Below are positions 3,005 through 39,716 of a DNA stretch of 64,000 bases, piece after piece; the stretch's first letter is position 1, and every line of letters starts with the position of its first letter. The stretch lies in IMG/VR virus record IMGVR_UViG_3300033233_001970. The stretch is one strand, 5' to 3'. The position numbers were made by a program, and so were the translations under genes. The notes below the pieces were generated by a model, which had not been told where the DNA came from, ran no database searches, and saw only the letters and a program-made list of their open reading frames with translations. Source of the DNA: a virus. Taxonomy: Duplodnaviria; Caudoviricetes.

Positions 3005-3237
3005 GTCTTCGGCTCGTGAAGCCGATCCCGCCCGAGCCGGTCTTTCCGAAGCTCGCAAAGCGGCTCGTCTTCCCGTTGATCGCCGTCACCGGCGGCAAGA
3101 GCCGGATGGCCGTCGTCGGGCGTGTGCACCGAAGAATCAACGTCGAGCGCGAGCTGTACTTGCTGACGCTCGACACGGCGAAGGAGCGCGGCATCTGTCC
3201 CGATCCCAGCAACGACAACGCAGCGCTCTACACATGA
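3001..3237 (+). CDS. hypothetical protein
   Basis: GTG start overlapping the previous stop, upstream GGAGG. Confidence 0.5.
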   Translation: MSLRLVKPIPPEPVFPKLAKRLVFPLIAVTGGKSRMAVVGRVHRRINVERELYLLTLDTAKERGICPDPSNDNAALYT

Positions 3238-3479
3238 TCGCGATGCGCTCGCTTCGGTGCCACAAACTTCACAACAAGCTCGATCCCGAGCCCGGCCGCG
3301 ATGCGCATGAGCGTGTCGATGGTCACGTTCTTCGTGCCGCGCTCGATCTTGGCGAGGTTCGTCGGATCCATGCGGATGCGCTTCGCGAGCTGCACCTGGG
3401 AGACCTGCATCGCGTCGCGCGTCGACCGCAACTGCTTTCCGATCGCGATCAGCGCTTCTTTGGTCCCGTCGTCGGCCAC
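3228..3479 (-). CDS. XRE-family HTH transcriptional regulator
   Basis: IGKQLRSTR..VSQVQLAKRI..TNLAKIERGTKNVTIDTLMRIAAGL. Confidence 0.88.
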   Translation of the reverse strand: MADDGTKEALIAIGKQLRSTRDAMQVSQVQLAKRIRMDPTNLAKIERGTKNVTIDTLMRIAAGLGIELVVKFVAPKRAHRDHV

Positions 3480-3560: not shown

Positions 3561-4334
3561 ATGCGTCGAATTGTTGCTCTGCTCTCGCTTGCTGTTGCTT
3601 CCGTCGCGTGCTCGTCGTCGTCATCGCCAGGCGGCGGAGAGGTCGACAGCGGCACGCAGGACAGCGGAAGCGGAAACGACAGCGGGACATCGTTGACGCC
3701 GGACACGTTCGTGGCGCAGTTGCCGGCCGCGTACTGCTCCGTCTACTTCCGGTGTTGCAAGACGACGGAGATCCCGCACGTCGGGATCCTCTCCGCGAAC
3801 AACATCACGACGCAGGCGCAGTGCACGGCATCGAGCGCCGTCGCGAGCGCGCTCCGCTTCCAGTGCTTGCCCGCCGAGGTGAATCAGTATCACGCGATGA
3901 CCTTCGACGCGCAGAAGGCGGCGGCGTGCCTCAGTGATATCCAGAACGCTCCGTGCGGCGGCGGGTTGGTCACGGAGCTTTGGGGCTCGACGAACTGTCA
4001 GGGAGCATTTGTCGGAAGTCTGCCGCTTGGAAGCCAATGCAGCGCGAGCCACTGCACCGTGAACCTAGCGTCGGCGTCCAAACCGAACAGCGAATGCGCG
4101 AGTGGTGACTGCAACAGCTCGGGCGTGTGCGCGAACCCGTCGCCCATCGGCGGAACGTGCTCGACCGACTCCGATTGCGTCTCGGGGTCGTGGTGCAGCT
4201 CGCTCCGCACGTGCACCAAGGCTACGGCGGCCGGCGGCGCCTGCACGCAGTTCGATCAATGCGAATTTCCGCAGGCTTGCTTCACGTCGCCTGGTGGCGG
4301 GAACGCCTGCGAATTGGTTTGTACCGGACCATGA
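3561..4334 (+). CDS. Cys-rich myxobacterial-type lipoprotein
   Basis: Lipobox ASVAC, DSG-rich linker, AYCSVYFRCC, FDAQKAAACL, repeated G..C..D.DC modules; GGAGG RBS. Confidence 0.85.
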   Translation: MRRIVALLSLAVASVACSSSSSPGGGEVDSGTQDSGSGNDSGTSLTPDTFVAQLPAAYCSVYFRCCKTTEIPHVGILSANNITTQAQCTASSAVASALRFQCLPAEVNQYHAMTFDAQKAAACLSDIQNAPCGGGLVTELWGSTNCQGAFVGSLPLGSQCSASHCTVNLASASKPNSECASGDCNSSGVCANPSPIGGTCSTDSDCVSGSWCSSLRTCTKATAAGGACTQFDQCEFPQACFTSPGGGNACELVCTGP

Positions 4335-6444: not shown

Positions 6445-8565
6445 TTCGCGCATGGTGCGCAGCGCTCAACTATCTAGGCGGATTTGGCGTCGGTTTTCTC
6501 ATCATCGTCGCACTGCCGATGACAGCGCTTGCGCTCGCGAACCGTGCGTCCTGGTTTCGGCCGAACCGGATAGAAAGATTTTTCGATGAAACACGCAGAA
6601 GCGATGACGGGTGGTTTCGGCTCGATTGCCGAAGATTTGAAAACTGAGAAAACGAAGTACGACATGGCCGTGACGGTAACGCTCGTTTTCAGCGACGAGT
6701 CGCACCGCGAAGCCTGGCTCGAGATGCAGGGGATCGTTCCTGACGTCGAGGTGCCGCCGAAGAACAAGGACGGCGAAATCGAGCTCCCAGAAGATCGTGA
6801 TTTGCGTCGAAAGATCACGAAGCGCATCGACTACAACAGGCGCCAACACGGGCCGGATCTTTCGTATCTTGTTGGTCCGCTTGGCGGGTCGAATCCGAGG
6901 CGTATCCCGTAAGGACAACGATCGCCCAATGAATCGCGCGGCTTCGAGGACGTATGATCTTCACGTGTAAAATTTGCGGACGCGAGCACGAGGGAGTGAG
7001 CAATATGTCCCCTGGCGTCGCTTCGGAAGAAACTGAGAAACTCAGAAACGCGTGGCTTATAGCGGAAGAGAAGTACGAAAAATCATCGAACGAGCACACG
7101 GAGAAGCTTCGCGACAAGGCATGGTTCGCGTATATGGCGACGAAGTCTTCCGGAGTCGAAAAACTTCCCGACACGATCACGACCAAAAATGGCAGCGACG
7201 GTTACTATCTCACGTGCGCGGAGGGTCACGAATGAAACCCCAACTCACGCCCCAGCAACAAGAGGTCTATGATCGATTTGCGGAAGTCGTCGACGTACTC
7301 CTCCGAATGCCGTCGGATGATGTGGAAGCCGTCGAGTCGAGCCTCACCGCGCGCTACGTGACGCACAAACACGATTTCGATGTCATCGAGGGGATGCGTT
7401 GGATGCTGGCCGAGCTTCGCCGCGTCGAGGACTGGCCCTACGAGACGTACGGACGCGGACGCGATGACGAGTCGATTTGGGATCGTACAGTTCATGAAGC
7501 GATGTGGGAAAACAAGTTGAAGCGAAGCGCGTGAAACACGGAGGCGCACATGACAGACGAATGGATGCGCGTAGGTGATGTTGTCCGGCACAAAGGTTCG
7601 GGTCGTGTAGGCAAGATCGGCCGGTTCGCCCACGACGGAACGACGGATGTTTGGGTTGACGAAACCGGGCCGTACAAGCAAAGTGATTTCGAAATTCTTC
7701 GGCCATCGACTCCAAAACCTGGCGAACCTGGTGGGCCGGAACTAGAAACGCCGGACGCCGACGGGTATACGTGTCATTGCCGAACATTTTCGGAGTGCAC
7801 GCACAAATAGACGGAGCTCATGGCGGAAAATCGATTCGAAGTTTGTCTGCGATGCACGGACGCCCGCTCGTCCGGCGATCTCGAGCGAGCGCCATTCCGA
7901 CGGCTGTCGAAGCCGTACATGCTGGCCCGTGGCACGTACGTGAAGCGCGCTTCGGCGGCGCTCATGACGGTGGATTACCACCAGCTTCCGGAGCTCACGA
8001 AACGAGAAGACCTTCACGTCGGCGACGAGGTCTATATCATGGACATCGTTGGTGAGGTTCGGCTCGCCAAGGTTGACGACGTGAACGGAGATGAGGCGCG
8101 CGCGTCGGACGCAGGAATGGTGTTTTTGTTGGAATTCGGGAGCGCATGGGTCTGCCCGAGCACGGTTCTTCGAGAGGTGTGGGAAGGTTGGCAGAAAGGA
8201 ACAAGACTGCCGTGAGCAACGACACGCAAAAACGAAAGAACGGAAGTCGCTACCTGCATGCGCTCGCGCTTTCGGCAGAAGGTCTCGAGCGCGAAGCGCA
8301 AATCGAATGGCTCCGGCTCGCTCAAGAAGAGCTGCACGAAATCGAAATGCTTCTCGCTTCGAGATCAGGCAGATACGGACTAAAGAAAGAAGAGATGAAG
8401 CCTCAGATCGCCGCGACACTCGCTTCCATCGCGGATATCTTGGGCGCGAAGAACAAAGATACGGTACGCGGCGTCGTAGGTTCGTTTCTCGACAACAGCA
8501 AATAGGTACTTGTACAACTTATACATGGACGCATAACGTGTGACGGAGCGCTCGAGAGAAATATC

Positions 8566-30656: not shown

Positions 30657-31400
30657 ACAAAGACGTCGAAACCATCGTTCATCACGTGAGGGAGCTCGCT
30701 GAGCGCGAGCGCCTTTTGGGCCGCACGGGTCGTGCCTACGATCAACTTGCTTCTTTGGTCGAAGCGGCGGGCGATCTCGAGCGCGAGCTCGCCGCACATC
30801 GTTCTTTGCTTCGTCTTTCGGTAATCGAACGGGACGAAGCGCGCGCTGAGCGTGACAAAGCGCGCGCTGGACTCACCGTAGCGGAGCATCTTCTCAAGAA
30901 GATCGAGACTCATCTCCGCGACGAGCTCGATCGTGGTTACGTCTTGTCGTACGAACCTCTCGCCGGCCAAACGTGGCGCCATCGCACGAACGAGGCGCTC
31001 GGTTGGGCTGAATCTGCGCGAGCCGCGACGCAAGTCGCGATTGAGAAAAATGAAGAAGGCGCGTGATGAAAATTCACTCCACACCTGCCGAAAACATCGC
31101 CTACCTCACGGAATGCATCCTCGCCACACGCGAGTATTTGCTCGGACTCAAGCGCCCGTCGCAGCACGAGATCCATCGTCACGAAAACATCGCCGCGTTT
31201 GGATTCTGCTCCCTGGCCAACGCGTGCGAATACGATCGTGAATTGATACGCCACTCGGCCGAAAATTTTCCACGGATATTGGAGGCCATCAAGCAGTTGA
31301 ACAAATTCATGGCTTCGGGCGATCTTTCTGCCGGACCGGTGACGCCGTGGTGGTCGGATACCGTTGTCGTGTCGAGGATATTGGGCTGGAAAGATCCGTG

Positions 31401-32333
31401 ATGGAAAAAGAAAATCCGTTCTACTCCACCACCATCACGCTTCCGATTTGTCCCACGGACGATCCGGAAATCACGTGTGTCATGTGTGGTCAGCTAAAGT
31501 GCGATCTCGAGATTTATGCCGCAGGCAACGGCCGTAAGGTATGGAGCGGGTTGCATACGAGGTGCTGGCCACGCAACGCGAAGACGACGAACGAAGCTTC
31601 TGCGGCACGGCTTGCGAGGGCCGATGGGATTGCGCAGCGTACTGCTACCGACGTCGAAACGCGCGTATGGATAGAGTGGGCGGAGGACGCCATCGCTTGC
31701 CTCATTGCTGACGTTCGTGACGCCGAACGCGAGCTCGAGCGCGAACGAGATTGGTCGGAACAAGCTGTAGAAGCGTACAAACAGGAAGCAGCGAAAAACG
31801 CAAAACCAGATGACGGCGAAGCGAAAGACGCCGCGCCGCGATCGGTACCGATGATCCTCACGTGTCCGGCGTGCGGTGTGCGCCACGTCGATGAGGGCGA
31901 GTTCGCGACGAAAACGCACCACACGCACGCTTGTCAGAAATGCGGAATGGTTTGGCGTCCAGCGATCGGTCCGACATGCGGCGTGCAGTTCCTTCCGGGC
32001 TTCAAGAATGAGGCATCGAAAAACATGAGCGTTGACATTGAGAACATTCCCAGACCGGACGGCGTAACGCTGACGCGCGAAGAATACGAACGGTTCCTCA
32101 AGAATCACGCGCAGTCACGACCTATCGGAGTCTACGGCGAAGCAAAAGAGGTGATGGGGCATCTTCTCGCGGCCGAAGCCGAGTATTTGAGAAATCGCGG
32201 CTGGATTCCGGTCGTCATGCGTGAGCAACCTGGCAAGGTCTGGTGGCAGGAGCCTGGCAAGAGCAAATTCGGGCATCGTCAGGCGATTTTGTTGCAGAAG
32301 GCGCGCGACAATTTCGATGAGGGACTCACATGA
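31401..32333 (+). CDS. mosaic zinc-binding protein
   Basis: CVMC; CPACGVRHVD..HHTHACQKC. Confidence 0.6.
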   Translation: MEKENPFYSTTITLPICPTDDPEITCVMCGQLKCDLEIYAAGNGRKVWSGLHTRCWPRNAKTTNEASAARLARADGIAQRTATDVETRVWIEWAEDAIACLIADVRDAERELERERDWSEQAVEAYKQEAAKNAKPDDGEAKDAAPRSVPMILTCPACGVRHVDEGEFATKTHHTHACQKCGMVWRPAIGPTCGVQFLPGFKNEASKNMSVDIENIPRPDGVTLTREEYERFLKNHAQSRPIGVYGEAKEVMGHLLAAEAEYLRNRGWIPVVMREQPGKVWWQEPGKSKFGHRQAILLQKARDNFDEGLT

Positions 32334-34582: not shown

Positions 34583-36504
34583 TGAGCACGAGCATGATGC
34601 AGTATCTCATCGTTGTTTTCGCCACTTTCGGATTGGTTGTCTATGGCATTGGCCGGTTGCGCATCGTGATGAAGAAAAAGCTGTCGGAAAATAGTCTGCT
34701 GCGAACGAACACGACCGTACCTGCGAGCGGCCCATTTCGGACAGCGCCACCGTTAGATGATGGCGCGAAGGATGTCGTCGGTCCCGTCATGACGTTGCAA
34801 CCGAAGAAACTCGTCCTCGCTTTCAAGGAAATACGTGAGGTCGTATGTCCGGCGTGCGACGAAAAATGGAAATGGTGGTATTTGCCTCAGCTCTGTACGT
34901 GCAACGAATGCGACAGGCTTCACTTTCATCAGAAGCATGCCTATGTAGACGCAAAGGATGGCAAAGGCGTTACGTACGGCAAAGTCCCATACGGTGACGA
35001 AGATTATCAAGGTTGCGGTTTCGAGTGGCTTGTTTATGCCAAGCACGTTTCGACCGGCACCGACCCGCAACAGCGTCTCGATCGGCGACCAAGAAAGAAG
35101 GCGCGTGATGCCTGAGTGTCCCGAACACAAAGGTACAATCTTCGGGTGCATGGCGTGCGCGTACAACGAGGCAAGAGCGGAAGTAAACCAGCTTCACGCT
35201 TTGCTCGGGCCGGGAATCGTTGCGCGTATCGAAGCTTTCTCGCGCACACGCATCGAAACTTCTTTGTCAAGCGCACGCCGAAGAATGGTTGCGTCAACTC
35301 GGCGGTCGCATCTCGCGTCCGCGCATCTTCCCGCCAGGCTCATCGTATCCGTGCACTGCAAATTGGCCGTTCGCAGGGGCGGTGCCGGGATGAGGTTTGT
35401 TTACCGCGCGGATGCAATTGTCGACATCATTCAGAAGGTCACGGGCTTTGTGCGCGATCTCGGTGTGCCGGTACGAAGCGGCTCCTTTCGCATTCACGAG
35501 GATGGATCGATTGGTCTTTTGCTTTCCGGAGAACGAAAAAAGAAGCGGTACACGATCGAGGCGTTCGACGTCGCGAACATTCGAGGCGTCCAGGGTCGCG
35601 CCGAGCTTGTGGCGCTTATTGGATCGGTTTTTCAGGGCGAGATCATCGATCCTGATGCCCGATCGGTGACCGGAGAGAAGCGATGACGCCCAAGGAGCGA
35701 GCGAAGGTTGAGGATCTAGATCTGAAACTTGCGATGGGCGTCGAGCAGACAACCCTCGCCGTCAGTCGCATCCTCCAGTCCGCCGTAAGGAATGAGTGGG
35801 AGAAGGTTCTCGCCGATCTCGCCTTCGCAAAAGAAGTCGCGTCGCTCTCGAAACGCAACTTCAAATCACGAATGCGTATCGCTGTTGGGCTACGGAAGAC
35901 GTCGACCAGCGAGGAGTGGAAGCGATGAGTGTTATTTGCGAGCACGGTAACTCGGCGGCCGTGTGCCGATCCTGCAACGAGCGGCGCATCGCCGCGCTCG
36001 AGGCGGAGAACGCGCGGCTCCTAGAAGCCATCGAAGGGCAAAAGGCGCTGGCGCTGTACGGCTACCAGGTACGCGACGAAGAGAACATGCGGCTTCGCGA
36101 AGCGCTGCGGGCGATTCTCGATCTCAAAGGTGCGCCGATCGAGTGTGACTGGAAAGCCGGTGTGATCGCCAGCGCGGCGCTCGCCGAACAAAAGACCAAG
36201 AAAGAAGGCGTGTGATGCGCGCAACCGATCACGAGACGGACGAAACACCTCAGCGCGCGAGCCTCGAGAAAAACGGGAAAACAATGAACGCTTGTGACCA
36301 CGGCGTCATGTTCAACGAAACCGAAGCCAGAAAACTCATTGAGGGCTGGGCCGCCGCAGACGAGGTCGAGTTCATCATGGGATGCCCTGCGAGCGCCGAA
36401 GTGCGCAAACGATGGCCTCGGCTCAACGGCTCATGCCCGAAGGGCTGCGGATACGTCGGTATCGCGTACGCATCGCACGAACACTACACCTATGGAGATT
36501 GGTG

Positions 36505-37041
36505 ATGGTCGATCCGCGTCGCGAAAAGAAACCCGTCAACACGCTGCCGCCATCGCCGCCGCTCCATGTGACGCTCGAGGAAGCGCGCGCGTGGCTGCGG
36601 AAGATTATGTGGCAGAAGAAAGTACCGTGCCCGTGCTGCAAACAAGATGTCAAAGTCTACAAAAGACAAATTAATCGCACGATGGCGAAAGCTCTTATTC
36701 GTCTGCACTTCTTCGATGAAGAGTGGGTGCACGTCCCGAGCGTTATCGGATTTTCAAGAATGGGCGGCGATTTCGCCAAAATGGGCTGGTTTGGGCTCGT
36801 CGAGGAAAAAGATGAGATCAAAGACGACGGCAATCCGCACGCGGGCTTTTGGCGTATTACGGAACTAGGCCGTCAATATGTGCGTGAGCAAGCGAAAGTT
36901 CCTTCTTTCATTCTGATTTACAACAACAGAGTTTTGAAATCATCGGAAGATCAGATTGGAATTCGCGACGCGCTCGGAAAGAAGTTCAACTACGACGAAT
37001 TGATGCGCGAAGCGATTGAGAGTTCGGGGAAGACGAAATAA
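36505..37041 (+). CDS. CPCC zinc-ribbon / winged-helix-like phage protein
   Basis: CPCCKQ..YKR, GGDFAK..FGLVE, GFWRITELG. Confidence 0.7.
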   Translation: MVDPRREKKPVNTLPPSPPLHVTLEEARAWLRKIMWQKKVPCPCCKQDVKVYKRQINRTMAKALIRLHFFDEEWVHVPSVIGFSRMGGDFAKMGWFGLVEEKDEIKDDGNPHAGFWRITELGRQYVREQAKVPSFILIYNNRVLKSSEDQIGIRDALGKKFNYDELMREAIESSGKTK

Positions 37042-37042
37042 C

Positions 37043-37114
37043 GGCTGGGCTTGGTTTGGCTAGGCATGGCAAGTCATGGCTGGGCGCGGCGAGGCAAGGA
37101 CTCTTTAAGGGGTA
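37043..37114 (+). repeat. GGY-NN pentamer array 1 (11 units) plus terminal hairpin; candidate guide RNA
   Basis: Phased 5-nt units 37043-37097, NN = TG TT TT TA AT AA AT TG GC GA AA, then GGACTCTTTAAGGGGT. Confidence 0.9.
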
Positions 37115-37124
37115 AGGAACCATC

Positions 37125-37724
37125 ATGAAAATCACAAAATTGAAAGCAGTCATCAAAGGAATTCGTCCGCTTCTCATGCACAACGGTCGTTTGCGCGATC
37201 CGCTCGATCCGCATTCGAAAGCGCTGTCCTCGGCGGTGAAGAAGGCAAAAACGTCAAAGGCAGATGACGACATTCTAGAATCCCAGCGCACGGAGTTCAT
37301 CGGCGGTTTCTACTTCGATGAGAAGTGTGGGCCGTGCATCCCTGCCGACAACCTTCAAGCAATGCTTACCGAGGGCGCACGGAAGCGAAAGCTCGGTAAG
37401 CAAGTCGAAGCGCTGGTGCAAGTAACGGAGCCGTCTGACGGCGCTATCGGTTACAAGCTCGAATACAAGGGGTCGCGCGATCCCGAGAAGATGTTCGAGG
37501 ACGAGCGTCATCGTTTCACGAAGTCATGCAAGATCGGTCAGTCGGCGGTGATGCGAACACGCCCGCGCTTCCCCGATTGGCAACTCGCGTTCGACATCGA
37601 GATCACGGAGGGCGGCCCAACGAAGGAGCAGATCCAAGAGGCTCTCGAAGATGCGGGCTTGCTCATCGGACTCGGCGATTGGACTCCGCGTTACGGGCGA
37701 TTCGAGTTGGTGTCACTGAGCTAG
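37125..37724 (+). CDS. stand-alone RAMP-superfamily (Cas7/Csm3-like) protein
   Basis: N-terminal strand IKGIRPLLMH, IPADNLQAML helix, RTRPRFPDW, C-terminal G-loop GLLIGLGDWTPRYGRFELV. Confidence 0.78.
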   Translation: MKITKLKAVIKGIRPLLMHNGRLRDPLDPHSKALSSAVKKAKTSKADDDILESQRTEFIGGFYFDEKCGPCIPADNLQAMLTEGARKRKLGKQVEALVQVTEPSDGAIGYKLEYKGSRDPEKMFEDERHRFTKSCKIGQSAVMRTRPRFPDWQLAFDIEITEGGPTKEQIQEALEDAGLLIGLGDWTPRYGRFELVSLS

Positions 37725-37727
37725 CAA

Positions 37728-37823
37728 GGCGCGGCAGGGCCGGGCACGGCATGCCGGGGCTAGGCTTGGCACGGCTCGGCTCGGCATGGCCAGGCCAGGC
37801 AGGGCAAGGACTCTTCAAAGAGT
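37728..37823 (+). repeat. GGC-NN pentamer array 2 (16 units) plus terminal hairpin; candidate guide RNA
   Basis: Units 37728-37807, NN = GC AG CG AC AT GG TA TT AC TC TC AT CA CA AG AA, then GGACTCTTCAAAGAGT. Confidence 0.9.
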
Positions 37824-37840
37824 ATGCAAATGAAAATCTT

Positions 37841-37916
37841 GGCTTGGCGTGGCGCGGCGAGGCAAGACACGGCTGGGCGGGGCAAGGTCAGGCGAGGCAA
37901 GGACTCTTAAAAGAGG
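37841..37916 (+). repeat. GGY-NN pentamer array 3 (12 units) plus terminal hairpin; candidate guide RNA
   Basis: Units 37841-37900, NN = TT GT GC GA AA AC TG GG AA CA GA AA, then GGACTCTTAAAAGAGG. Confidence 0.9.
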
Positions 37917-37922
37917 ACAATC

Positions 37923-38336
37923 ATGAACAAGAATGAAATCGACACGATCGTTATGGAAATGGTTGACGAGTTGCTCAAAGTAGAGCGATTCACTCGACAA
38001 GATTTCATGAATCGTTGGCCATACCATCCGGCCGTGTTCGGCGACCTGCTCACGCAAGCTTTCGACATTGTTCGAAACGATCATGGAATTGAGTTTCGTC
38101 CTGGTCCTTACGGTAGCGTGCAACGCGCAAATTACAAAGAGACGATCAATCGCTCGCATCGTCAGCGAAAAGCCGCGCTCAAGAAACTCGAACGAAGCGC
38201 AGCACGAGCGGACGTATCCGCGAAAATGGCTACCACAACGAAAGAGCGAGAAACAGCAGAGAAGATGGCTGATCTTCAAAAACTTCAGCTCACTGCGGCG
38301 AAAGTACGATCGCGTAAACGACTTTCGGCTGTATGA
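37923..38336 (+). CDS. hypothetical accessory protein inside the RAMP/array cassette
   Basis: GAGGA RBS; sits exactly between arrays 3 and 4; basic helical C-terminus. Confidence 0.75.
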   Translation: MNKNEIDTIVMEMVDELLKVERFTRQDFMNRWPYHPAVFGDLLTQAFDIVRNDHGIEFRPGPYGSVQRANYKETINRSHRQRKAALKKLERSAARADVSAKMATTTKERETAEKMADLQKLQLTAAKVRSRKRLSAV

Positions 38337-38344
38337 AATCGCAC

Positions 38345-38415
38345 GGCTTGGCCAGGCTGGGCGCGGCTGGGCGAGGCCAGGCTGGGCAAGGCAAGGCAGG
38401 GACTCTTCAAAGAGA
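38345..38415 (+). repeat. GGC-NN pentamer array 4 (11 units) plus terminal hairpin; candidate guide RNA
   Basis: Units 38345-38399, NN = TT CA TG GC TG GA CA TG AA AA AG, then GGACTCTTCAAAGAGA. Confidence 0.9.
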
Positions 38416-38637
38416 TTCGGCAATAAGTGAGAAGTGCTCGGGGCTGATGTGGCCGCCGATATCATATTTTACACCCGCCGAAGGCGTGGCTGCTGGAATT
38501 GCCAAGGAACGAATGGCCATCGAATCCCTCTGCCGATCCCTCCACGAGCCCGATGGACGAGTTTACGCGCTTCGTACCTTGGAGTTGATCGGCAGCAACG
38601 CCGCTGAGCGTACGCGTCGAGAAAAGTCGGAAAGGAA

Positions 38638-39273
38638 ATGAGCGACAAACCCGTCTGGCCGCGCGGTAAGCCGATCCCGAGCTTCGAAAGCTACGCGGAC
38701 GAGGTGAAGTTTTGGCACTCGTACGACTTCGATGATGGAGGCGAAGGTTGGGAAGAGGTACCGAAGGCGTGTCCGTGTCCGCAATGCCGTAAGCCAGTTG
38801 ACATCGGCCCGACACCGCCGGACCAGTGCCGCCATTGCATGATGCTGGCGACCGAGGCCGCGTCGGACGATCTCTTGATCTACTGTTTCGGTCACGAGGG
38901 CCAGTATCACGAGTTTGGTGATTCGGACTGGTCAGGGGAAACGGCCAAGCGATGGGCAAAGGCCAACAAGGTGCTGAGGCGTGCGTGGGAGCCGCCATCG
39001 GCCGGAGCGGCGCACGGGCTCGGTTTCGCTCCAGGCGAGCACGAAGAAGCCGTCGAGGACTACGAATTCGACGTCCGGTTCAACGCAAATTTGACCGATA
39101 GTCTCGCCGTTCTTCTTCGTCGCGTGCTCAAGGATGGCGAAGCCAGAGACCGCGCTGAAATCGTGAAAATCATCGAAGAACATCGTGAGAAATGGCGCAC
39201 GATGTACGAACAAGATACGACCGCTCAGATCGTCATCGGCGAGCTCGGGCGTGTGATCATGCGTATTCGTTGA
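38638..39273 (+). CDS. mosaic protein with CopG-antitoxin-like N-terminus and zinc finger
   Basis: IPSFESYADEVKFWHSYD; CPCPQC..CRHC. Confidence 0.55.
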   Translation: MSDKPVWPRGKPIPSFESYADEVKFWHSYDFDDGGEGWEEVPKACPCPQCRKPVDIGPTPPDQCRHCMMLATEAASDDLLIYCFGHEGQYHEFGDSDWSGETAKRWAKANKVLRRAWEPPSAGAAHGLGFAPGEHEEAVEDYEFDVRFNANLTDSLAVLLRRVLKDGEARDRAEIVKIIEEHREKWRTMYEQDTTAQIVIGELGRVIMRIR

Positions 39274-39283
39274 GCGAAAAATC

Positions 39284-39311
39284 TTGACACAAAATGACAA
39301 AGAGTTAGTGT
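39284..39311 (+). promoter_or_regulatory. conserved phage promoter, copy 4 (leaderless, ATG 39318)
   Basis: TTGACA-CAAAATGA..; 16 nt spacer; TAGTGT. Confidence 0.65.
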
Positions 39312-39317
39312 GACGTC

Positions 39318-39716
39318 ATGGTCGAGAGACTCGAACGCCTGGTGCTACGCGAAATCGGTAAATGGGGCCGCATTTCGCCCAAAAAGCTCTGCATCAACCT
39401 CTCTGAACGCGGCGAGTCGTTCAACGACGTACGCGACACGACGAACCGTTTGTGGAGCCAGGGCGAGATTCGTCTTCACGATCAAATGTGGCAGATTGAC
39501 GATCACTTCACACGCTCGGTGAAGGAACTGAAGAAGAGGAAACAGCCCATAACGCTCCGTACGCTCCGGGCGTACGTTGGGATGACCGACGAAGAGGGCC
39601 AACGCGTCCTCAGGCTCCTCAGGAGAAAGAAGCTCGTGACGTTCGTGCGTGCGAAGAAGTGCAAGACCTGCGGCCACGTCCTCGACAAGAACGAAGGGTG
39701 GGTTTGGGCCGGATGA
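39318..39716 (+). CDS. tandem winged-helix-like protein with CxxC
   Basis: Two short helical repeats, then CKTCGH. Confidence 0.55.
   Translation: MVERLERLVLREIGKWGRISPKKLCINLSERGESFNDVRDTTNRLWSQGEIRLHDQMWQIDDHFTRSVKELKKRKQPITLRTLRAYVGMTDEEGQRVLRLLRRKKLVTFVRAKKCKTCGHVLDKNEGWVWAG

Follow-up and report, generated by a model that had tools for sequence, protein, structure and literature searches.

A probable four-guide VIPR locus on a large uncultured element from a sediment metagenome

The 64,000-nucleotide stretch of IMG/VR record IMGVR_UViG_3300033233_001970 analyzed here, hereafter the window, comes from a sediment metagenome and belongs to a contig of about 246 kb. We propose, with a probability that we put at about 0.88, that positions 37043-38415 of the window are a complete VIPR (Viral Interference Programmable Repeat) locus, whose nearest characterized relatives are of type II. 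VIPR was published in April 2026 in two bioRxiv preprints, one of them revised in June 2026 (10.64898/2026.04.26.720920 [PMC13142463]; 10.64898/2026.04.26.720927). In that description the Vipr protein is a minimal RAMP that binds one protomer per repeat and sequesters the GGY triplet (Y, pyrimidine), and each guide RNA (vrRNA) has 9-16 GGY-NN repeats and, after them, a tail that does not vary. Double-stranded DNA is read by pairing with the NN dinucleotides, every third target base being skipped; the outcome is transcriptional repression, chiefly of competing phages and satellites, and an accessory gene, vap, boosts the effect. Published loci are without cas genes or CRISPR arrays, about 71% of them are viral or proviral (a setting that is not obligatory), and VIPR has been proposed as an ancestor of the CRISPR RAMPs (10.64898/2026.04.26.720920; 10.64898/2026.04.26.720927). 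By sequence analysis, the locus in the window has the VIPR features of protein homology, pentamer arrays, structured tail and minimal gene content, and it differs from the characterized members in second-order traits. It adds a member to the described class and does not found a new one.

Layout of the locus and its pentamer arrays

All elements of the locus lie on the + strand, in the order vrRNA1, vipr, vrRNA2, vrRNA3, vap-like gene, vrRNA4:

37043..37113, + strand: predicted vrRNA1, 11 GGY-NN units (37043-37097) and a tail of GGA plus hairpin (37098-37113)
37125..37724, + strand: vipr, 199 amino acids (aa), minimal RAMP
37728..37823, + strand: predicted vrRNA2, 16 units (37728-37807) and tail hairpin (37808-37823)
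37841..37916, + strand: predicted vrRNA3, 12 units (37841-37900) and tail hairpin (37901-37916)
37923..38336, + strand: vap-like accessory gene, 137 aa, winged helix plus helical hairpin
38345..38415, + strand: predicted vrRNA4, 11 units (38345-38399) and tail hairpin (38400-38415)

The elements are tightly packed. The first array begins 2 nt past the stop codon of the upstream gene, and its tail ends 11 nt short of the vipr start codon; the second begins 4 nt past the vipr stop codon. The gaps between the stop codon of a preceding gene and the start of an array span 2 to 9 nt, and those between the end of a tail and the next start codon 7 to 11 nt (two tails). This layout, the unit counts of 11, 16, 12 and 11, and the two open reading frames (ORFs) of 199 and 137 aa had been reported in the initial annotation of the DNA, and the sequence and a phased scan reproduce them.

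The triplet counts agree exactly with those reported: over the 50 units the constant triplet is GGC 45 times, GGT twice, and GTC, GCC and GAC once each, so that 47 of 50 are GGY. Fourteen of the 16 possible dinucleotides occur at the NN positions. The longest unbroken phased run of GGY comprises 11 units, whereas 100 dinucleotide shuffles gave longest runs of 3.1 units on average and 4 at most. When both strands of the 64-kb window were scanned, a single phased run was found outside the locus, at 8051-8075, with 5 units of which 4 are GGY; the initial annotation had seen no such array elsewhere in the window. The arrays are far above chance and restricted to the locus.

The initial annotation also saw no cas1, nuclease or CRISPR nearby. 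The 64-kb window contains no CRISPR-like repeat array, and no defence or cas family of PADLOC 2.0 matches any of the ten ORFs tested, which lie at or near the locus and are spread across 29.7-42.8 kb. Rfam 15, which has no model for vrRNA, returns no family at its gathering score in the 64 kb. No sigma-70-like promoter was found within 35500-39500. Because none lies inside the locus, we infer that it is probably transcribed as one long polycistronic RNA, from which the guide RNAs would be released or protected.

One further idea about the layout was set aside. The linker between arrays 2 and 3 had been considered as a duplicated vipr start (ATGAAAATC), but the 9-mer occurs five times in the window, and its copies at 37125 and 5298 coincide with ORF start codons (reading M-K-I); the argument is therefore weak.

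The Vipr protein and the accessory gene

The 199-aa protein is a direct sequence homologue of a Vipr protein of solved structure. A word-indexed search yielded 89 relatives, 54 of which were aligned (alignment A1) and served as the source of a family profile. The profile matches PDB entry 36pp_D ("SUSP1 Vipr protein") with an E-value of 3.7e-54 over positions 4-190 of 193, and the single 199-aa sequence matches the same chain with an E-value of 2.2e-29 over residues 7-195. The homology to the type II systems of Escherichia phage SUSP1 and the Pseudomonas fulva prophage runs from end to end (199 vs 202 aa), with 32.5% identity to close SUSP1 relatives (Felixounavirus). The protein comprises an RRM core, a helical-bundle insertion, a thumb beta-hairpin at about residues 130-149, and a Gly-rich loop at 178-192. 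From the letters alone the initial annotation had read hallmarks of a RAMP and had put forward the name VIPR; the fold is indeed Cas7/Csm3-like, the similarity is real, and the name was right. The residues that contact the two guanines in SUSP1 (G1 and G2) are conserved as well: H17, R138, D177 and W178 align with H19, R146, D185 and W186 of the window protein. Among the 54 relatives, H19 and R146 never vary and D185 reaches a conservation of at least 90%; W186 is invariant in the 14 closest ones.

Pfam gives no match for the 199-aa protein or for the locus as a whole, and neither Pfam nor PADLOC 2.0 has a model for Vipr. In PHROGs v4 the protein matches phrog_4652 (function unknown) over its full length with an E-value of 8.5e-45, and this family appears to consist of phage Vipr proteins that are not yet named in PHROGs v4. 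The A1 profile retrieves 8,085 clusters (50% identity) at E ≤0.001 and 1,611 at ≤1e-30, and 130 phage records encode a Vipr homologue.

Similarity to the Cas7/Csm3 proteins of type III CRISPR-Cas systems (and of type VII and III-E) amounts to only 12-18% identity. The locus has no Cas10, Cas5, Cas6, Cas1 or Cas2 and no CRISPR array. VIPR differs from Cas7/Csm3 in its periodicity, which is 5 rather than 6 with three guide bases sequestered per subunit, and in its target, which is double-stranded DNA read through a gapped code, whereas Cas7/Csm3 target RNA and read it contiguously. Membership of the locus in CRISPR-Cas type III was rejected, with no repeat-spacer array in the 64 kb and no cas family among the ten ORFs tested.

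The 137-aa protein encoded between arrays 3 and 4 has an N-terminal winged helix (residues 1-69) and a C-terminal helical hairpin (70-128). A profile search with its family gives ten relatives in total, none of them named, and a homologue adjoins vipr in seven of seven metagenomic loci (alignment A3). In a viral structure library, the top match is a 267-aa protein of Gordonia phage Trine (E-value 2.4e-4, TM 0.65), which is encoded beside the Trine vipr; at rank 8 stands a 146-aa Felixounavirus protein, of the same length as the product of the gene beside the vipr of Escherichia phage wV8. In structure, the 137-aa protein resembles those encoded next to vipr by phages Trine and adrianh. Structure and synteny are our only grounds for classifying the gene as vap-like, with the winged-helix vap1 of type II as its probable closest counterpart. 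As a separate observation, the gene annotated in Trine as gp40 (267 aa) starts within the arrays of that phage, and its Arg/Gly-rich N-terminus is probably a mis-called start.

Conservation of the cassette, tail hairpins and genomic setting

Relatives of the locus were gathered through contigs that encode Vipr homologues. They comprise seven independent metagenomic loci (L001, L002, L005, L007, L009, L010 and L011), with Vipr identities of 48-82%; a related-locus search with alignment A2 gave none in IMG/VR or GTDB genomes. Same-strand GGY-NN arrays stand beside vipr in all seven, with 2 to 8 arrays each, and also in three of three phages, namely wV8 (a close SUSP1 relative), Trine and Medea1. 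Pentamer tracts in the flanks of homologues were what the initial annotation had asked for as a check on its reading. Across 338 units from the window and the seven metagenomic loci, positions 1-3 carry 1.5-1.8 bits of information, a figure that is partly circular because the arrays were found through GGY, and the NN positions carry 0.02-0.10 bits, a randomness that is not circular. L001 encodes a Vipr 82% identical to that of the window, yet no NN series is common to their guides; the guides are thus turned over while the repeat frame is kept. The locus L010 sits between capsid and tail genes. Its last array (L010:5083-5225) has 21 units, above the published 9-16, and closes with a GC-rich hairpin and a T run that resemble an intrinsic terminator, in place of the usual mini-hairpin tail.

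Each array of the window ends in the same motif, GGACTCTTnnAAGRG, which has four sites, all at array ends, where 0.10 are expected in the window. The initial annotation had pointed out this shared ending; three copies are exact, and the copy after array 1 (37098-37112) is one base off. Across the clade the tail consists of GGR (R, purine), a stem of 4-5 bp, and a tetraloop that is mostly UCAA-like. The stem sequences change from locus to locus and yet remain paired (CUCU/AGAG in the window, CGCU/AGCG in L001, GCGC/GCGC in L005, GCGG/CCGC in L009, ACACU/AGUGU in L010 and UCCU/AGGA in L011), and the L007 tails form a longer GAAA hairpin. We measured covariation on 24 distinct tails, picked by register and not by pairing, with exact duplicates removed, the L007 tails excluded as another, long-hairpin class, and five clear non-tail sequences retained. 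The covariation score is 0.36, compared with 0.18 for shuffled sets (1 of 500 reaches the observed value), the true register exceeds all slid registers, and two-sided changes occur at four of four stem pairs. G-U pairs occur in tail 1 of the window and in several tails of L001, so the stems fit + strand RNA only. The hairpin is weak (-2.4 to -3.3 kcal/mol) and is predicted in all four full-length vrRNAs. The tail opens with GGR, and purines are kept out of the published pyrimidine pocket; such a tail would fit a signal for the end of the filament.

Compared with the SUSP1 and P. fulva systems, the window vrRNAs, at 11-16 units, lie inside the published range and likewise bear an invariant structured 3' tail; one vrRNA stands upstream of vipr and the remainder downstream, a small putative DNA-binding accessory gene is present, and cas genes are missing. 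The window differs from them in having two vrRNAs between vipr and the vap-like gene and one after the latter, and in a Y that is almost always C. Its tail, a 16-nt unit of GGA, 4-5 bp and tetraloop hairpin, also differs from that of the SUSP1 clade, which measures about 40 nt and contains a pseudoknot, and is closer to the GGG plus GCUG-AAAA-CAGC hairpin of Pseudomonas phage Medea1. The P. fulva vrRNAs are reported without a pseudoknot. Because of these P. fulva vrRNAs and the similar Medea1 tail, the mini-hairpin tail is of an already known kind and not new.

Tails of other phages drew our attention in their own right. Those of Trine (3188-3245 and 3297-3355) contain a motif like the tRNA T-arm, CCGGGGTTCGACTCCCCGG, which hints at processing by tRNA-maturation enzymes. 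The GenBank record of wV8 annotates a direct repeat, DR_4, at 2259-2316 and 3652-3709, and its two copies start at or just past the ends of the GGT-NN arrays (2257, 3655) that flank the vipr-vap pair; apparently, vrRNA tails had been noticed, as repeats with no explanation, well before the first description of VIPR.

The purine-rich 3' arm of the vrRNA3 hairpin overlaps the likely ribosome-binding site of the vap-like gene (37901-37925 in the window). There and at L001:1779-1804 and L011:2921-2946 and 4118-4142, such an arm (AAGAGG, AAGGAG or AAAGGA) precedes the start codon of the following gene by 7-8 nt and resembles its Shine-Dalgarno sequence; the hairpin of L010 and that of tail 1 in the window stop just short of the ribosome-binding site. 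Translation of vipr or vap could thus be in competition with hairpin folding or with the cutting out of the guide. We offer as a tentative proposal, with the odds against it, that the clade is a distinct VIPR sub-variant, marked by a Thr or Ser in place of a pyrimidine-stacking Arg in 13 of the 14 closest relatives (see below), a near-exclusive C, the 16-nt GGR-tetraloop tail, and guides interleaved with genes, and that the 3' arm of the hairpin may also serve vipr or vap as a Shine-Dalgarno sequence. In that case, a transcript cut or folded into a guide could no longer be used to translate the following gene, which would balance the supply of guide and protein.

The element that carries the locus looks like a large phage or other mobile element, for which it is a candidate. 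The matching sequencing runs are two sediment metagenome DNA runs, and a second assembly (a 198-kb contig) reproduces 20.6 kb around vipr, including the entire locus, with 100% identity. The window is dense in small + strand ORFs without family matches, and neither Pfam nor PHROGs recognizes most of the larger ORFs tested. Families that were recognized in it include HNH endonucleases, a DNA methylase, a RadC-like protein, an ADP-ribosylglycohydrolase and a transposase; no tRNA genes were found in positions 1-64000. Directly upstream of vrRNA1, a 219-aa gene (36382-37041) matches phrog_2693 (function unknown, E-value 4e-40) and, weakly, a zinc ribbon. It is probably not part of the VIPR system, because no homologue stands beside vipr in the related loci. 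Farther upstream, a 328-aa ORF (31347-32333) has a weak match to PF07282, below the threshold (Cas12f1-like TNB zinc-ribbon; E-value 4.9e-4, 20.6 bits against a cutoff of 26.3), and matches nothing in PHROGs or PADLOC; it could be what is left of a TnpB or Cas12 relative, or just a zinc ribbon.

Proposed mechanism, targets and alternative readings

By homology with SUSP1 Vipr, one protomer would bind each GGC of the guide, G1 being held by H19 and D185 and G2 by R146 and W186. Filaments of 11, 16, 12 and 11 subunits would form on the four guides, each capped at its 3' end by the GGA and tetraloop hairpin. Binding to a target would then open an R-loop triplex and block transcription, an effect that the winged-helix Vap-like protein may enhance. 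The likeliest targets would be competing phages or other mobile elements of the same sediment community. Much of this had been anticipated by the initial annotation, which envisaged a RAMP polymerizing on GGC-NN RNA, gripping the GGC and displaying the NN, with binding or repression, for instance of competing phages, as the possible output; both ideas agree with the published description of VIPR. In that description vrRNAs are discrete RNAs of about 100 nt, and in SUSP1 and P. fulva the tracts are transcribed and co-purify with Vipr (10.64898/2026.04.26.720920; 10.64898/2026.04.26.720927).

Several observations weigh against a working VIPR locus directed at competing elements. Three concern the protein. 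In SUSP1, the pyrimidine of the repeat (Y3) is contacted by R179, E71 and M72, which form the pocket that excludes purines, and K33 contacts the backbone of the skipped base; the mutation K33A abolishes repression (10.64898/2026.04.26.720920; 10.64898/2026.04.26.720927). R179, whose cation-pi interaction with the pyrimidine is made by R177 in P. fulva, corresponds to T187 in the window Vipr, K33 corresponds to S35, and E71/M72 to D75/N76. When the profile of the 137-aa family is set against that of the SUSP1-type accessory group in hhalign, the match is not significant (E-value 0.78). The window contains no virion genes (capsid, portal or terminase). Finally, exact-match searches of IMG/VR, JGI metagenomes and GTDB genomes did not find a natural target, and the inter-phage role is therefore extrapolated. 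Those searches used exact 1-nt-skip patterns, of the four full guides and units 6-16 of vrRNA2 in IMG/VR, of vrRNA2 units 3-14 and vrRNA3 units 1-11 in the JGI metagenomes, and of vrRNA2 units 6-16 in the GTDB genomes; as they allowed no mismatch, they are weak negatives. When 37 guides from the window and related loci were tested for cross-targeting against the DNA of the window and those loci, matches reached at most about 80% on short guides, a value expected by chance.

The missing external target would be expected if the locus worked but its guides regulated genes of the element itself or of its host, as a control of the life cycle, and the self-target test covered only 64 kb of the contig of about 246 kb. 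Within those 64 kb, the best sites under the 1-nt skip rule match 15/22, 19/32, 18/24 and 15/22 positions, none above shuffled controls, and skip lengths of 0, 2 and 3 also score at chance level. This lack of self-targets agrees with the published systems, which show no self-targeting at ≥80% NN match and have their targets in competing phages and satellites (10.64898/2026.04.26.720920; 10.64898/2026.04.26.720927). Given also the weakness of the external negatives, we regard regulation of own or host genes as unlikely. The residue changes raise another alternative, a decaying or inactive remnant that no longer binds RNA or DNA productively: the equivalent of the essential K33 is a Ser, the cation-pi Arg has been replaced by Thr, and the GG is missing in 3 of 50 units (GTC, GCC and GAC). 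Yet vipr is under purifying selection (dN/dS, the ratio of nonsynonymous to synonymous substitution rates, of 0.05-0.12), and T or S occupies position 187 in 13 of the 14 closest relatives, as befits a trait of the clade and not a lesion. The four arrays and their tails are all intact, the whole cassette recurs unchanged in the second assembly, and degenerate internal units are common in working vrRNAs (10.64898/2026.04.26.720920; 10.64898/2026.04.26.720927), so that decay strikes us as very improbable.

Least credible of all, to the point that we give it almost no weight, is that the tracts act at the level of DNA, for instance as two-tetrad G-quadruplex tracts or as iterons bound by protein, and simply happen to adjoin a RAMP-like gene. 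GG runs at a spacing of three bases could in principle form G-quadruplexes, but the tracts lie on the coding strand only, beside vipr, in every relative, and the tail stems covary and contain G-U pairs that suit + strand RNA only. The transcription of the SUSP1 and P. fulva tracts and their co-purification with Vipr speak in the same direction, as do structures with one protomer per repeat. We retain the reading of 37043-38415 as a VIPR locus.

The VIPR concept is unchanged by this locus. What it contributes is an intact four-guide cassette of a very recently described RNA-guided DNA-binding system, found on a large uncultured sediment element. It also reveals a metagenomic family far larger than the published survey implies: the 8,085 clusters retrieved here (50% identity, E ≤0.001) compare with 2,664 unique NCBI sequences in that survey (10.64898/2026.04.26.720920; 10.64898/2026.04.26.720927). 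Lastly, the locus provides natural variants at residues that are essential in SUSP1, with Arg to Thr in the pyrimidine pocket and Lys to Ser at the skipped-base contact, together with a minimal 16-nt tail. Such variants could help to define the smallest working VIPR for engineering.

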